DNA of 18,386 nt from Deltaproteobacteria bacterium TL4. Lineage in GTDB: Bacteria; SAR324; NAC60-12. Location of the stretch: assembly GCA_051382335.1 (NCBI GenBank), contig JBBCAX010000417.1:1-18386 (forward strand), written 5' to 3'. Below, one piece after another: positions 6,001-12,000 of the stretch; the first letter of the stretch is position 1; every line of letters begins with the position of its first letter. Made by a program: the position numbers.

Positions 6001-9000
6001 ATATTTTAGCTAAAGCAGGCAAGTAAGCAAAGGCCCCCTATGCTGGAATTTGTTAAAACAGAACAAAGAAACCAAAGTCAAGAACAGTTCAAACACCAAA
6101 AGCGTAAGTTTTTATGTAAAATTTGCCAAACCGTCATCAGTGAAGAAAAGTACCTACTGGTCACTCATGGAGAGACGCCTTATCATACTTTTAGAAATCC
6201 CCTGGGACTTGTTTTTAATATTGTCACCTTATCTTATTGTGAAGCCCTGTGTCCAGTTTCCACCCCCACCTCTGAAGAAACCTGGTTCTCAGGCTTCACC
6301 TGGACCATCGAATGCTGCGTCGTCTGCCGAGAGCACTTGGGATGGTGTTTTGAAGGGACGTCAGAACCCTACCGCTTCTATGGATTGGTTTACAACCGAC
6401 TTGAATCAAAATAGTGTCCAGGCGGCTGTCCCAGAATAGGTTGAGAGGAGCGATTAGCGAAGCGGCACCCATCAAAATGCACGTCTCTGAGGGGTGCCAG
6501 TGAAGTGAGGGGTCTTGGACAAGGACCTAAGATCGTTTCACTTTAAAAAAGGAAACAAGCTTTTTAAGTGCTTCTGCCATTTTCGAAAGTTCCCCGGCAC
6601 TTTCGGTAGTGTGTGCCACAATATACTTCATGGATTTAACGGTTTCTTCAATCACCGTAATATTTTGATGAACCCCCTGAACACTCATTGAAACGTGAGC
6701 ACTGGAACGAGCTGCTTCTTTGACGCCTACTGAAATTTCGGTCAGGTTCCGGGTTGCTTCTTTTGCGGCATAAGAAGCCTCTGAGGTTGAAGAGGTTATT
6801 TCCTGGAGTCCTTCGGTGGCCTCCTTGACGTTGAGTGCCGAGGTTTGGCTGGCTTTGGCGATTTTTTCAATCGAAAGATTCACATTCGAAAAAGCCTTGC
6901 TTTCTGTCTCAACCGTTTGATCAATCGTGGTATTGATACTTGCGATCTCCGTATTGATTTCATTCACATGGGTCATGTGCACCAGACTCGTTTTCATATA
7001 GGTTTGAATCTGTTCTATATGCTGTCCGATACTGCTGTTCGCGTCTGTGGTTTGATGAGCCAGTTCTTTTACTTCCGCGGCAACGACGGCAAACCCTTTT
7101 CCGGCTTCTCCCGCACGAGCAGCCTCAATGGTCGCGTTGAGAGCCAGCATATTGGTTTGTCCGGCAATTTCGTCAATCAGCTCCACAACTTGTCCGATTT
7201 CTGTCGCCGCTTTTCCGAGTTGATTCATGGTATTTAAGGTTTCTTGAGCACGTTCGCTGGCATTTTGCGAAATAGTCATCGCTTTTTGAGTACTTTGAGA
7301 AATCTGCCCCATGGAAACAGACATCTTCTCGATCGTCAGGGCAACCTTTTGAATATCCTCGGAAATCAAGTTAACATTTTGACTTGTACTGGACATTTTA
7401 CTGGACGCCTGATTTGCCGCCGAAGCGATGGCATTGATATTGGTACTCAACTGTTCCACTGCGGAAGTTACCGCAAGGATATTACTTGAAGACTGTTCTG
7501 TCGCGGCCGCAACCGTGTTGACATTGTGGCTCATATCCTGGGAGGCTTTCGAAATGGCATTGGTTTGCTCGTGAATTTCTGTCGAACTGGCGGCCATATG
7601 ATTAGCGACGTCAGTCAACTCGGTCGCCGCAATATAAAGTTGATCCGTATGGGTCGCAATCTCACTGACTGTATCATGAATCTTAAGCGTAAACTGGTTA
7701 AACCCCCGGCTTAACGCGCCAATCTCATCTTGTTTCCGTATTTCAAGACGGACGGTTAAATCGCCTTCACCTTGAGTTAAATCCTCAAAAGTTCTAATAA
7801 AATGATGCAGAGGGACATAGAGCGTGTAGCGGAAAATAAGGAACATCAGCAATGTCACAGGAATGATAATGGCAATAATAATCACTCCCATACTTACCAA
7901 GCTTTCGTCCCTTTGCTGATTGAAGAGATCCTTGTTCATCTTGAGGCTCAAGTAACCCGCGATATTATTTTCTTTCCAATGGGTATGGCACTGTATGCAG
8001 TTTTTGGTAACAGGAATACTATAATAAAACAGGAATCCGACTTCGGTAATCTTATGCGCCATCCGTTTTTCATCAAATTGTAATTTTTCTTCTTTAATAT
8101 CAAAGTGACAGGTTCCACATCTTTCATGTCCTTCTTCTTTTCTATGTTCCATCGCTGTTTCTGTATCTAAACGGTCTATAATATTCCAATCTTCTCGTTT
8201 ATATTGCCCTTTCGTCTCTTTATAAAGTTCAATATTAGGGTTATCAAATTCACCTGTATCAGGATCTTTCGTAAAGGGGATACCCACCGTGACTTCCCCT
8301 GATTTATAGGTCATCAATCCAAACGATGAATAAAGTGCGGTTTCTTCAATTTCATTTAGATTGGCAATATTATTGACAACATTTTGAAATGGTTTTCGTT
8401 GTCCTTTTTCAAGAGATTCCTTGGATTGTCGAACAAAACTACTGAGCAAACTATACCCCGAGTTAATCATTCGCTCCTCATGCATGCGGTTTTGAACGAT
8501 GTAGACAACGATTGCGATAACAATGGCAATGGCAACCGTCGCGCTACTTACAAAAAAGATGGAACGATTAATCAATGATTGTTGAACTTGAACGCTGGAA
8601 TTACTCATGAATGGATCCTGATTGCTGTCTTTTTAAGTTCCTGTTGACTCACCTTTATGTTGGCTCGCACACTCTGGTATCTTTATATTGGTGAAACATA
8701 ATTTTTCTTGGAAATTGATAACTGGCACATCCCACACAGGGGTGTCCTGCCCGGATACAGGTATTGGTATTGTCATTATGCCCCAGAGTAGAACAATCAT
8801 TATAGGTCACGGGGCCCTGACACCCCAGATGAAGCAAACAACCATCTTCGCCGATGACTGCAGCAAAATGGTTTTCCTGAAAATCCGCATAATAGAGACA
8901 CCGCTCATGGATGGTATGCTTGAATAAGTGTAAGGGGCGCAAGTGCTGATCCAGCTCAGGGAGTTTATTTAATTGCAGAAAGTGCAGCAGGGTGTAGGCC

Positions 9001-12000
9001 AAATGTTCAGGTTTCATAGGACAGTTGGGTAGATTCACCAAGGGATTAGTTATTTTTTCCTTTTGCAGAAATTCCTGAAGAGAAAGACTTCCGGTAACCA
9101 TACCTTCCATCTTGGTAACACCGCCAAAAACAGCACAAGTTCCAGCGCCAACATTGGCAATCGAATGAGAAGCCAGAAGTTCAACCCAATAAGCAATCGG
9201 TTTGCCTGCCATCATGCAGGCATGAGGCATTTGACCAGGAATAGCGCCTTCAAACACAAAGAGATATCCCCGCTTTGATTCGATCAGCGATTCGATCAGA
9301 AGCGGAACTTGATGCCCCGTGGCCAAGGACAAATCCGGATGAAAGACCAAATCAATAAAGCGTGTGATTAAATCGACGATGGAGATGGTTTCCAAATCCA
9401 GCAAAGACCCGGAACATCCGGAACAAGAAGTTCCATGAAGCCAAATCACTGCCGGTCTTTCTGACTTGTTCTGAGGTGCCGCCAACAGGTCCTCAAAGGA
9501 AAGAAAGGAGCTTGCGCCAATTCCCACCACCACTTCAAACATGCGTAATAGTACTTCTCTACGAGTGAGTTTCTCCATGAGGTCTCCTTTGGATAGTTTT
9601 AATGAACCGAGCAGGCCATACAAGGATCAACTGACCGGATAATTCTTAAAAGCTCAAGGGGATGTTGGGAGTTCGCCACTTTGGTTCCAATCAACATTTG
9701 TTCGACAAAGCCACGTTTTCCCTGGGAATCTTTAGGGGACAGATTCCATGTGGTCGGTACAATTAAATCATAGTTCCGAATGTAGCCCTTTTCATCAGTT
9801 TCAAGCCAGTGTCCCAACGCCCCACGGGAAGCTTCTGTCAGGCCAACGCCTCTACGGGACTTAGGAACATCCATTTCGACAAAGGCTTTTTGATCAGGGC
9901 GGACGGCGGCAAGATCTTCCTTCAGTTTTTCAATCATTAACAGCGACGTCAGCATTCTGGATAAATGTCGGCCCATCACAGAGTCATAATCGTCAAGGCT
10001 AATCCCCAATTGACGATTCGTCTGATCCAGCAGTTGAGTCAAACGTGGATTTTTTCCACTGCGATAGGTGTTTATCAATCTTGCGGCAGGGCCGACCTGC
10101 ATCACATGACCGTTGTATCTTGGCGCTTTGGTCCAACTGTATTTTCCCCCCTCCCGTTGCTGCTCCTTTTCAAAGGCAGCTTCATCTAAAGGCGTTAATT
10201 TATTTTGTGCTAACGGGCGAACGTCAGAGGAGGGCTTGTCATTGTAGTAGGAATAGGTGTGGTCTTCCGAAATTTTATCAGGATCCAAGGGTTCATACAC
10301 CCCCTGAATGGAAACGCCCCCTTGAATCATAGGTGTCTCCCCGTTGGCATCAGGCATAAAAGGATAGGACAATAAGTTCCCGTTGCCCCGACCTATTTGA
10401 AAATACCTTCGAAATTGAGAAGCAACCGCTACAACATCATTGTAATACGCTTGAGTAATAAAAGCTTCCGCCTGTTCAAGGAAACTTTGAAACCGAGCAA
10501 GCTTAAGGGGCGTTGGTATTGTCGTAACACCACCGGCTTCCATCGTAACGGGATGAGGGGCTTTCCCACCAAAAAGAGCCACCATTTTATGAATGTCCGC
10601 CATCACCGGAAGGGCCTCCGCATAGTGTTTGATGGCACTGAAATTGGAAGCGCTGTCTTTATTATAATCACCTTCATAGCGTGGAAGAAAGGGACTTGCG
10701 GGAAAAACGCTGTTGCTTTCAAGTTCAGCTTTGACCCAGTTTCTCAAGTAAACCAGCGTTGCGTCCTTCCCCTGATATTGAAGTACGGCGGCAATATCGA
10801 TGAAATCCAAAGCGCATAAATAGTAAAAATGAAGCAAATTATCAGACAGTTGATAGGCGCCGACAATCAGATTTCGCAGTAACTGTCCATTCGAATTAGG
10901 CTTAATCCCCATTGCGTTTTCCAACGCCAAAGACGCGGCCTCCGCATGAGCATAGGGGCAAATACCACAAACACGCTGCGTGACTTGCTGTGCCACTCGA
11001 GCGTCATATCCTATCAATGCCTTTTCAATACCTCGAAACATTTCTGAGCTTGCCTTAACACCCACCACGACATTGTCCTGGATCTCAGCTTCAATCTTCA
11101 AATGTCCCTCAATCCGGGTGACCGGATCAATGATTATCTTGTTGTATCCCATGCTCTCCTGCTCCTATAAGTTATGTGTCCTCCCTCTTCGCTGTATGCC
11201 AAATTAATCCAACACAGTCTAGTTAAAAATACAATTATTCGCTTCAAGCTATAGAGGTTCATTTAAATAAATTCAGAAAACTCATCCTGTTGCGAGATCC
11301 GTTGAAACAACGCTGTTTCAGGAGTACCAAAGCTTGCTTTGGCCAGAAAGTCGAAAATCTTTCTTTGCCTTTGGCCAAAGCAAGCTTTGGCACTCCACAG
11401 TCGGGGGTAGACTCAAATGAATTTATTAATTTCTTCCATACGCTCCACCTCGCTTTTTAAAAAGTGGAAGCATGTTTGAGAGGCGCCTTTTTGGGATTCA
11501 ACAAAATGTTGCACTTGTTGCCCTAATTGAAGACATCGCTCTCGATTGCCCAGGTGTGTCCATAAAACTTGATGAAACTCGTTGGGCGTACTTACGGTTG
11601 AGGCCAATTGATGCGCTACCATGTGCTTGGCTTCAGGTGAATTATGGAAGCGTGGTCCAAAAATTACAGGAACCCCCATGGCACAGGGTTCCAGGGTGTT
11701 ATGGACCCCTGTCGTGAACGCGCCTCCGATGTAAGCCAAATGTCCAGCCTCATAAAGGGAGGAGAGGATACCGACGGTATCCATGAGAATGATCCGAACT
11801 TCCGCTGTTTTTTCGTTGAGCTGTGACCAGCGGACCAAAGGAAATTCATGGAAAAACGTTTCACTCGGCTTTAGATGCGATTCCATGGGCTCATGCGGAA
11901 CAATCAGCAGCAACAAGTCGGGAAATTGTGTCAGCGCGGCTTTAAGTGCGGGGAAAATACAGTCTTCGTCCGGAGGCCAGGTACTCCCCGCAATGAAGAC

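Follow-up and report, generated by a model that had tools for sequence, protein, structure and literature searches.

In sediments, vents, aquifers and syntrophic communities, hydrogen serves as a central currency of energy, and H2 taxis, as far as the accessible text of PMC3817446 goes, has been demonstrated only in an archaeon, with no receptor named. According to HydDB, all group 1 [NiFe] enzymes are respiratory, and a link to methyl-accepting chemotaxis proteins (MCPs) is listed only for a putative [FeFe] class. The entries for that class (C2, 'chemotactic (putative)') and for [NiFe] group 2c ('diguanylate cyclase-linked (putative)') give the role as undetermined and mention neither export nor a haem receptor. 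With these classes the locus described here shares the idea of an H2 report to an MCP or to c-di-GMP, although the enzyme is of the [NiFe] type and thus belongs to a different superfamily from [FeFe] C2. It also resembles group 2b (HoxBC-HoxJ of Cupriavidus necator) in the H2-sensing role that we propose, in a large subunit without a C-terminal extension, in maturation by Hyp proteins without a protease, and in a gene placed beside that of its signal transducer. No publication describing the dihaem system was found, the HydDB and bioRxiv supplements lying outside the scope of that search, and the cassette does not appear in the accessible parts of the genome descriptions of Pelobacter, Arcobacter, Deferribacter and Nautilia PV-1.

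The window analysed here, a stretch of 18,386 nucleotides from Deltaproteobacteria bacterium TL4, contains genes for a hydrogenase large subunit, a small subunit and a chemoreceptor, all on the minus strand and separated by gaps of 20 and 46 nt (Table 1). We re-derived these positions from the window, and they agree in strand and spacing with a preliminary description of the locus. A scan for promoters and terminators was uninformative (13 found against 7.7 ± 2.9, and 8 against 5.2 ± 2.2). The genome (G000; 445 contigs, 100% complete by markers) carries hypABCDEF, tatC, cytochrome c assembly genes, fliM and 44 CheW matches. As had been reported, it holds a single hydrogenase large-subunit match (PF00374, n = 1) and no maturation protease (PF01750, n = 0); moreover, no match to the [FeFe] H-cluster family PF02906 was found anywhere in it. 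A possible second hydrogenase on another contig (C420) was rejected, its large subunit being without CxxC.

Table 1. Features of the hydrogenase-receptor locus, with positions in the window
Feature	Position	Strand	Basis
[NiFe]-hydrogenase large subunit, 517 aa, no C-terminal extension, deep-branching group-1-like clade	9599..11152	-	PF00374, 445 bits; tree clade support 100
L1 Ni-binding motif RVCGICPYAH (C62, C65)	10946..10975	-	C62 and C65 invariant in alignment
L2 motif DPCMACSVH, stop codon directly after	9599..9628	-	Sequence; homologue comparison
Small subunit, 307 aa, ATG start with AAGGAG site	8655..9578	-	Pfam/NCBIfam
Twin-arginine (Tat-type) leader, about 34 aa, RR at residues 6-7	9477..9578	-	RR conservation
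Methyl-accepting chemoreceptor, 693 aa: TM1 - dihaem sCache - TM2 - HAMP - MCP signalling	6527..8608	-	Pfam HAMP and MCPsignal; hydropathy
Periplasmic sensor domain, predicted single-Cache fold with haem-carrying insertion of about 55 residues	7901..8500	-	AlphaFold pLDDT 92.7
CXXCH 1, CGTCH, residues 164-168, in lineage-specific insertion	8105..8119	-	Invariant, 34/34
CXXCH 2, CIQCH, residues 204-208, short helix between last two strands, canonical sCache_heme site	7985..7999	-	Alignment and AlphaFold model; site per bioRxiv 10.64898/2026.02.01.703092
MCP signalling domain, residues 439-606	6791..7294	-	PF00015, E 5e-37

The large subunit was confirmed to lack a C-terminal tail, and the His of L2 forms the C-terminal end in 118 of 118 scorable homologues. 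The catalytic Cys residues, E15, D104 and R443 are invariant in the alignment, and Leu112 occupies the position of a Phe in HoxC, a site that we take to belong to the gas channel. The closest solved structures are periplasmic group 1 enzymes, as previously noted (best PDB match 1e3d, E 2.4e-92, against 2.9e-43 for the group 2 enzyme Huc). Membership of group 2b was rejected, the identity to HoxC, the one 2b reference, being 29% and the sequence branching with group 1. In quick trees (FastTree and IQ-TREE LG+G4, run without bootstrap or AU test), the clade lies outside the crown of the other group 1 sequences (support 98), that is, of 1a-like NiFeSe, Dehalococcoidia and 1b-1e-like sequences, as labelled from motifs and hosts and not from HydDB references. 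One distant locus (L061) joins long branches in these trees.

With group 1a enzymes of the Desulfovibrio Hys type, the present enzyme has in common its closest solved structures, the CGxCP motif in L1, a Tat-type leader, a fourth medial Cys, three sets of [4Fe-4S] ligands at the sequence level and the lack of a membrane anchor. It differs from group 1a in having no C-terminal tail (0/118) and no protease gene (0/57 loci, and none in the genome), and from the Hys type in its use of Cys instead of Sec, its large-before-small gene order and its link to a receptor instead of respiratory partners. In the small subunit, the Cys and His ligands for three Fe-S clusters, which we assigned by hydrogenase numbering presumed to apply here, are invariant in the alignment, and the fourth Cys at the medial site leads us to predict three [4Fe-4S] clusters. 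The FPRxIMxH tail is conserved, and hydropathy revealed no C-terminal membrane anchor, only residues 9-27 being hydrophobic.

The twin-arginine signal attributed to the small subunit was also found (N-terminus MEKLTRREVLL), unlike in HoxB of group 2b, which has no leader. In all 35 small subunits compared, RR precedes the Trp of the proximal cluster by 38-44 residues, and it takes the form RRxFLK in Nautiliaceae-like members and most monohaem relatives. These sequences suggest that the hydrogenase is probably exported by Tat. It could be supposed instead that the enzyme stays inside and acts on the cytoplasmic part of the receptor, as HoxBC does on HoxJ, or that docking is coupled to signalling by conformation without electron transfer to haem. 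The leader of the dihaem clade, with its weak h-region, acidic C-region and no clear cleavage site, would fit such a scheme, as would the literature, in which natural tail-less hydrogenases belong to groups 2b, 2d, 4c, 4e and 4g and not to exported group 1 enzymes. We regard it as very improbable, however, given the RR in all 35 small subunits, an engineered tail-less MBH that was still matured and Tat-exported, and a partner in which the periplasmic domain stays constant and only the cytoplasmic part is exchanged. Among the relatives, one tail-less, RR-bearing enzyme (L008) has no adjoining receptor, and tail loss is also present in unrelated group 1 enzymes (L019 and L056); together with the atypical leader, these observations count against a sensor reading.

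The receptor shows the transmembrane topology of an MCP, in which the sensor domain is followed by TM2, HAMP and the signalling domain. The two CXXCH motifs announced for it begin at residues 164 and 204 and are flanked by hydrophobic segments at 12-43 and 233-267. This partner is a two-TM haem-c receptor with a mostly MCP output, in contrast to the cytoplasmic histidine kinase of HoxJ/HupT type that serves group 2b. Pfam and PDB sequence searches assigned the sensor domain to no family and returned only weak, CXXCH-driven matches; PF11845 was matched by 3 of 34 members, with a best E value of 0.0075, below the Pfam cut-off. When only the sensor region was used as query, a word-indexed search retrieved nothing but that query, and relatives came from a profile search. 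The modelled domain has the single-Cache fold of sCache_heme, with a helix (residues 166-171 in the numbering of the model) between strands 155-163 and 180-188, as expected for the CXXCH helix of that family. Its best structural match was the sCache of WalK (Z 12.5, rmsd 3.1, 126 aligned), followed by Tll0287 (Z 7.0, rmsd 3.5, 122 aligned) and GSU0935 (Foldseek E 0.011), and it matched one-haem relatives at 99.2% in hhalign. The receptor thus resembles sCache_heme proteins (DUF3365/Tll0287; Geobacter GSU0582/GSU0935) and DcrA in the Cache fold and in a CXXCH carried by a short helix that lies between the last strands, and sCache_heme proteins also in fusion to MCP, kinase or GGDEF outputs. It is unlike sCache_heme in the second CXXCH within the insertion and in its tie to a hydrogenase; the terms 'hydrogenase', 'diheme', 'two CXXCH' and 'multiheme' have no occurrence in the main text of bioRxiv 10.64898/2026.02.01.703092.

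Invariant CXXCH motifs and the cytochrome c assembly genes of the genome predict covalently bound haem c. A His lies 5-14 residues before CXXCH 1 in 46 of 53 representatives, and His155 is a candidate distal ligand of haem 1. For haem 2, no invariant His or Met was found as a distal ligand (M99 occurs in 28/34), and the one characterised signalling member of sCache_heme binds NO, behaving as a sensor of that gas with an exchangeable ligand; both points count against the sensor reading. They would suit a detector of coincidence or ratio, in which the hydrogenase holds the haem ferrous and the true ligand is NO, O2 or CO, bound where haem 2 has its distal site open; the cell would then read H2 against an oxidant at redox interfaces. 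Haem 2 occupies the canonical sCache_heme site, and DcrA of Desulfovibrio, a haem-c MCP, has been read as an O2/redox sensor. However, generic sCache_heme receptors without any hydrogenase exist (L210, L211 and L213), which indicates that gas sensing can do without one, and the near-obligate tie to the enzyme clade indicates that H2 is the added information; we accordingly consider such a detector rather unlikely. A complex prediction for the small subunit and the sensor domain, with haems, clusters and the large subunit absent from the model, scored 0.01 against a mark of 0.32.

We compared 77 genome loci, with at least five clade loci among the matches listed. The tally given earlier needs one correction: a fifth full dihaem cassette occurs in a member of Nautiliaceae (L006, 47% identity), and in the distant loci L007 and L061 a related one-haem receptor lies behind a tail-less hydrogenase. 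In the forward direction, the dihaem sensor domain was adjacent in all 41 loci with enough flank and absent from none, 14 of the 55 being too short. Conversely, a search of 841 genome slots found the dihaem receptor in 17 genomes, with 18 genes in all. For 16 of the 18, the neighbouring gene is a hydrogenase or what is left of one, and for the other two a clade large subunit lies elsewhere in the same genome. All 17 receptor-bearing genomes hold a clade hydrogenase or remnant, despite broken synteny in some. In Sulfurimonadaceae, the identical 4 of 151 genomes contain both parts. The distances between sensor domains follow those between large subunits (rho 0.76; 0/2000 permutations; 28 loci), for which shared descent alone is sufficient.

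These counts bear on the idea that the genes are neighbours through historical hitch-hiking and are not linked in function. Synteny is indeed broken in G650 and G632, as it is around the second receptor of G701, yet the parts are kept even when dispersed (all three genes of G650 lie on three different contigs), and the cassette spans several phyla and survives reordering and inversion, with the receptor upstream in L002 and divergent in L099. Chance adjacency was rejected, and hitch-hiking, largely refuted by the two-way co-occurrence, seems extremely unlikely. A monohaem cassette, a candidate sister of the dihaem form, is present in Desulfobacterota. No plasmid carried the clade, the best identity in 142 records being below 60%.

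The outputs of 48 dihaem representatives comprised 35 MCP, 3 GGDEF, 3 hybrid kinase and 2 HATPase-only forms, with none found in 5; the GGDEF and hybrid-kinase forms are known from protein records alone, without genomic context. The sensor domain is thus constant while the cytoplasmic domains are swapped. A HyaD-type protease was found in none of the 57 clade loci but in 48 of 70 other group 1 loci, and cytochrome b in 0/57 against 20/70. With the two profiles used, no electron-acceptor gene besides the receptor was linked to the enzyme in the 57 loci. The co-occurrence, the constant sensor with its swapped outputs, and the absence of a quinone-reducing partner and of a protease all favour the periplasmic H2 sensor originally suggested.

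The preliminary description also raised the possibility that the enzyme serves uptake, the receptor then reading electron flow in energy taxis. In the form considered here, a soluble periplasmic hydrogenase resembling group 1a would supply a pool of cytochromes for energy, and H2 sensing would be secondary. A second [NiFe] hydrogenase is present in 16 of 18 genomes examined, and in 12 of them it is a separate group 1 enzyme, such canonical enzymes having been seen with a protease and/or cytochrome b (L149, L150, L153 and L154). Together with the lack of any linked acceptor gene but the receptor, and with the consideration that an energy-taxis receptor need not be gained and lost with one enzyme clade, this weakens the uptake role across the family, and we judge it unlikely overall. 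It fits better where the clade enzyme stands alone: no other hydrogenase was found in G000 or G650, a situation that a pure sensor would not lead one to expect, and G009, G064, G169 and G199 have no group 1 enzyme besides it. Among solved structures, those of periplasmic uptake enzymes come closest to this protein, whose active site is complete, and G000 keeps a full Hyp set for it. With no second hydrogenase found, the enzyme of TL4 may have a dual role that includes uptake. The TL4 genome also contains 21 frames in which CXXCH occurs at least three times; these could accept the electrons instead, which favours uptake and counts against a sensor.

On balance, we consider it probable that the three genes form a periplasmic H2 sensor that passes electrons to the receptor haems. 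Hyp proteins would load the NiFe site of the large subunit, for which proteolytic processing is unnecessary, and the dimer would then be exported via the Tat signal of the small subunit. Periplasmic oxidation of H2 would then send electrons through three [4Fe-4S] clusters to the c-type haems, entering probably at the insertion haem and moving on to the canonical sCache_heme haem beside TM2. The redox change would be relayed through TM2 and HAMP to the CheA pathway, and the output here would most likely be biased swimming by flagella along gradients of H2. We infer that the enzyme is exported, docks on the receptor and passes electrons to it, that H2 is the cue and motility the output, and likewise the sign of the response; the parts, their intact motifs, their co-inheritance, the exchange of outputs and the lack of a protease and of cytochrome b can be read directly from the sequences. 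In relatives, the same input module would feed kinases or, judging from domain content, diguanylate cyclases.

The occurrence of these parts together across several phyla most likely reflects an undescribed bacterial way of sensing H2. The evidence is about evenly balanced on a broader reading, in which tail-less Tat-exported [NiFe]-hydrogenases with haem-c Cache receptors constitute a widespread and old class of extracytoplasmic H2 sensors branching below respiratory group 1. Its monohaem form would belong to Desulfobacterota, and a derived dihaem form would have spread to Campylobacterota, Gammaproteobacteria, SAR324 and Chrysiogenota. Through electron transfer from enzyme to haem across a membrane boundary, the class would provide bacterial H2 taxis with its molecular receptor, and would offer kinases and c-di-GMP enzymes an H2 input that can be plugged in. 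If this is true, the classification would gain a sensory subgroup, in which a group-1-like enzyme acts as front end to a chemoreceptor, some 'H2 uptake' enzymes of metagenomes would be sensors, and H2 taxis would have a concrete receptor candidate open to testing. A naturally protease-independent exported hydrogenase would also be of practical interest for heterologous production. Cultured carriers of the clade large subunit are Sulfurimonas hongkongensis, Thiocystis violacea, Thiospirillum jenense and Desulfurispira natronophila.

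The [NiFe] large subunit, the twin-arginine small subunit and the haem-c receptor of the window form a three-part module that is real and conserved. As the preliminary description had it, the genes share one strand (all are on the minus strand), separated by 20 and 46 nt, and the large subunit, terminating in DPCMACSVH-stop, has no C-terminal extension. The two CXXCH motifs assigned to the periplasmic domain of the receptor were found at positions 164 and 204, between the hydrophobic segments 12–43 and 233–267, and the closest solved large subunits were again of group 1 (periplasmic Desulfovibrio enzymes, E 2.4e-92 vs 2.9e-43 for group 2). 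The neighbours, namely kdtA upstream and, on the other strand downstream, genes for a CheY-like receiver and a Yippee-like protein, are outside the unit.

Genes of the hydrogenase–receptor unit in the window and loci of the cassette with one haem motif
Feature	Location	Strand or taxon	Description
Large subunit	9599-11152	-	517 aa; Pfam NiFeSe_Hases
Small subunit	8655-9578	-	307 aa; Pfam Oxidored_q6 + NiFe_hyd_SSU_C
Receptor	6527-8608	-	693 aa; Pfam HAMP + MCPsignal
Monohaem cassette	L185-L197, L199, L007, L061, L212	mostly Desulfobacterota	one CxRCH sCache_heme MCP

We consider it probable that the module senses H2 in the periplasm: Hyp proteins would mature the dimer, which would then be exported by Tat and oxidise periplasmic H2, thereby reducing the receptor haems, and a chemosensory kinase would receive their redox change by way of TM2 and HAMP. 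What we infer for the module is its export, docking, electron transfer and behaviour; according to the accessible text of one report, an engineered tail-less MBH large subunit was still matured and Tat-exported (PMC7294309). The twin-arginine signal claimed for the small subunit is present at its N-terminus (MEKLTRREVLL), and the hydropathy of this subunit shows a single weak hydrophobic stretch (9–27) and no C-terminal anchor. That hydrogenase and receptor are coupled in the cytoplasm, or by some means other than electron transfer, appears very improbable.

We examined 55 loci of the clade of tail-less, group-1-like large subunits close to the window enzyme (5 from a genome scan, 2 from relatives and 48 carrying the clade motif from a metagenome scan). 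The predicted periplasmic single-Cache domain of the receptor (the sensor domain) adjoins the hydrogenase in 41 of the 41 loci with enough flank and is missing in none of these, so that the claim that the three genes stay together holds well beyond the loci first inspected; the other 14 loci end less than 2.75 kb downstream, a flank too short to score. Both CXXCH motifs are visible in 39 of the 41 adjoining receptors, the other two being cut by a contig end, and the 41 loci represent 37 distinct receptor ends, with some redundancy. The usual gene order is large subunit, small subunit, receptor; the receptor comes first in L002 and L102, and L099 is divergent. HyaD and cytochrome b profiles each matched in 0 of 57 clade loci; of 70 loci with other group 1 enzymes, HyaD matched in 48 and cytochrome b in 20. 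L100 and L135 have Hyp genes next to the cassette: HypD was recognised by a match to PF01924, and the remaining ones are presumably other Hyp genes. A frameshifted large subunit was seen in the cassettes of L129, L147 and genome G701 (broken cassettes listed: L216, L129, L147 and L231), which may reflect sequencing error.

Conversely, we searched the sensor-domain profile in 151 Sulfurimonadaceae, 401 Desulfobacterota (the phylum of L007), 201 Chromatiales (the order of L004) and 88 genomes of the window phylum, and obtained 18 dihaem genes from 17 genomes. Fifteen of these have a hydrogenase gene next to them; one (G835) abuts a decayed remnant of 22 large-subunit residues and is itself truncated, possibly by sequencing error; and two are orphans, in G650 and as a second copy in G701, with a clade large subunit elsewhere in both genomes. 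The large subunit, small subunit and receptor of G650 lie on three separate contigs, and in G632 the small subunit and receptor are together with the large subunit apart. Six of the 18 genes were already in the forward set (G000, the TL4 genome, and G007, G009, G062, G063 and G837, the receptors of G837 and L002 having identical ends), and hydrogenase sequence is adjacent in 10 of the 12 new ones. Of the 151 Sulfurimonadaceae genomes, 4 contain both parts and 147 contain neither. The distances of sensor domain and large subunit correlate (rho 0.76, 28 loci), which shows co-inheritance, not contact. Beside such counts, the reading that hydrogenase and receptor have no functional link is hardly credible, even with two receptors standing alone.

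Run against 1.84 billion representatives, the sensor-domain profile had 216 matches, 56 of them at E <= 1e-30, with scores falling sharply from 181 bits through fragments to 62 bits or less. The query aside, each of the 53 top representatives has two CXXCH motifs, and 86 of the 90 tail matches listed have one. The sensor model (pLDDT 92.7) matches the single-Cache domains of WalK (Z 12.5, rmsd 3.1, 126 aligned) and Tll0287 (Z 7.0). In this model, the second CXXCH is on a short helix between the last strands, a position by which sCache_heme is defined in the accessible text of a preprint (bioRxiv 10.64898/2026.02.01.703092), and the first is within an insertion of ~55 residues. At 5–14 residues ahead of the first CXXCH, 46 of 53 sequences have a His, a candidate distal ligand; 4 have a Cys and 1 a Met instead, and 2 have none of these. 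Haem 2 has no evident invariant ligand. An H2-primed sensor of NO, O2 or CO, or a sensor of a redox ratio, is quite unlikely. As for outputs, 48 of the 53 dihaem representatives were scanned, and carried MCPsignal (35), GGDEF (3), a hybrid kinase (3), HATPase only (2) or none (5, four of which are short). The GGDEF and hybrid-kinase forms are known from proteins without genomic context; HATPase-type receptors lie beside the hydrogenase in L101, L106, L116, L130, L134, L140, L201 and L202. A constant input with a changing output looks, at the sequence level, like a sensor module. At L099:10424-12793, a dihaem sensor is fused to a cytoplasmic part of ~450 residues with no Pfam match at 1e-5.

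The same profile detected 16 weaker genes in Desulfobacterota, with a small-subunit gene directly upstream in 14; the exceptions are in G526, which has a monohaem-type hydrogenase on another contig, at the contig end, and in G602. In the regions inspected, an MCP with a single CxRCH comes after the small subunit at 14 loci, as it does in L007 and L061. The large subunit, read in 13 of the 14, in L191 as well, and in L007 and L061, ends at the His of the C-terminal Ni-binding motif (L2) in all listed, and the small-subunit leaders are mostly RRxFLK. Among four weak matches from Chromatiales, the small subunit is upstream in one (L212) and not in the other three. Aligned with each other, the sensor profiles of the two forms reach 99.2% probability; the sister group of the dihaem clade is one of the monohaem subgroups (support 99), and both cassettes are present in G547 and G496. 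The HyaD and cytochrome b profiles matched in none of 16 monohaem loci. Relatives of the monohaem lineage are the tail-less large subunit and the RR small subunit of a planctomycete locus (L008:3660-6346), next to which there is no receptor.

In a protein search with the large subunit, the best 120 matches (SAR324, Sulfurimonas, Arcobacteraceae, Gammaproteobacteria, Desulfurivibrionaceae and Desulfurispira) are 500–542 aa long and, the query excepted, 56–66% identical. The terminal residue is the L2 His in 118 of the 118 in which L2 could be scored, the two left out being one partial sequence and one with Gln at the end. Among cultured species, clade large subunits were seen in Sulfurimonas hongkongensis, Thiocystis violacea and Desulfurispira natronophila. 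In an alignment of 36 large subunits, the Ni ligands as well as E15, D104 and R443 vary little or not at all, so that the enzyme looks catalytically intact. In 35 small subunits, RR lies 38–44 residues ahead of the proximal-cluster Trp; the cluster ligands are all invariant and the medial site has a fourth Cys, from which we assume three [4Fe-4S] clusters (hydrogenase numbering). The clade has support 100 in the trees. In a quick IQ-TREE run on 42 rows, 20 other group 1 sequences form a crown (support 98) that excludes it, and it stands apart from HoxC (29% identity); these being quick runs with few outgroups and without HydDB references, its subgroup label is provisional.

In its probable mode of action, with a hydrogenase as the sensor, the module resembles the group 2b regulatory hydrogenase, but it differs in phylogeny, leader and partner; its enzyme is built like group 1a but lacks the tail and the protease. 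In the accessible text of the HydDB paper, group 1 is respiratory, 2b and 2c are the sensory [NiFe] classes, and MCP linkage is listed solely for the putative [FeFe] C2 (PMC5037454); the naturally tail-less hydrogenases named in another paper are 2b, 2d, 4c, 4e and 4g (PMC7294309). A 2025 neighbourhood study, in its accessible part, tabulates an 87-gene MCP cluster near [NiFe] hydrogenases without discussion (PMC12727194). We found no description of the cassette in the open full-text literature (subscription papers, Greening 2016 and supplements being outside this scope), and the chemoreceptor-linked [NiFe] class proposed as new apparently represents a sensory lineage undescribed there. The module makes bacterial H2 taxis directly testable.

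The TL4 genome contains hypA, B, C, D, E and F, tatC, three cytochrome c assembly genes and fliM, with 34 MCP-like places and 44 CheW matches; since it holds many Che systems, the receptor output is not necessarily the flagellum. This chemosensory inventory is very large. The hyp genes are spread over contigs C96, C160, C399, C413 and C442, and on C399 hypE is flanked by the two parts of a HypX-like match, whose order is reversed. As stated previously, the window gene is the sole NiFeSe_Hases gene: neither a second [NiFe] large subunit nor HycI nor an [FeFe] enzyme was found in the 445-contig assembly; as hypF itself is split over contig ends, a gene may be missing from this assembly. Another [NiFe] hydrogenase is present in 16 of 18 genomes examined, a separate group 1 enzyme in 12; G009, G064, G169 and G199 have only weaker group-3-like matches besides the cassette (sequence read only in G199), and no other hydrogenase was found in TL4 or G650. 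That the module is an uptake enzyme whose electron flow is read by energy taxis is unlikely, although for those two genomes it is the sole hydrogenase seen. In addition, 21 frames of TL4 carry at least three CXXCH (up to 19).

Two of these multihaem frames, on C25, have a cytochrome b match. A candidate second hydrogenase (C420:448-9834) was rejected, the large subunit of this membrane complex having none of the Ni cysteines; the complex is related to energy-converting hydrogenases and is, we assume, of the Ehr type. On C160, the gene run directly upstream of hypF (L159:1018-7835) presumably encodes CRISPR type III RAMP-like proteins. Other group 1 large subunits in L009, L019 and L056 have no tail or one of 4 residues, with leaderless small subunits, and the genes that follow are, we presume, MetV/MetF-like. 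In the window, the genes at 5637-6414 (+) converge on the receptor gene and encode first the receiver and then a zinc-binding protein of 124 aa that is Yippee/Mis18-like (PF03226, E 1.7e-5, below the cut-off); a protein of 480 aa (12753-14195, -), whose C-terminus is LETM1-related (NF040639, below the cut-off), is encoded upstream of kdtA; fliM (505-1530, +) is solitary, at a distance from the other flagellar genes; and the N-terminal half of a protein with an FGE-sulfatase domain (14709-16094, +) is without assignment.
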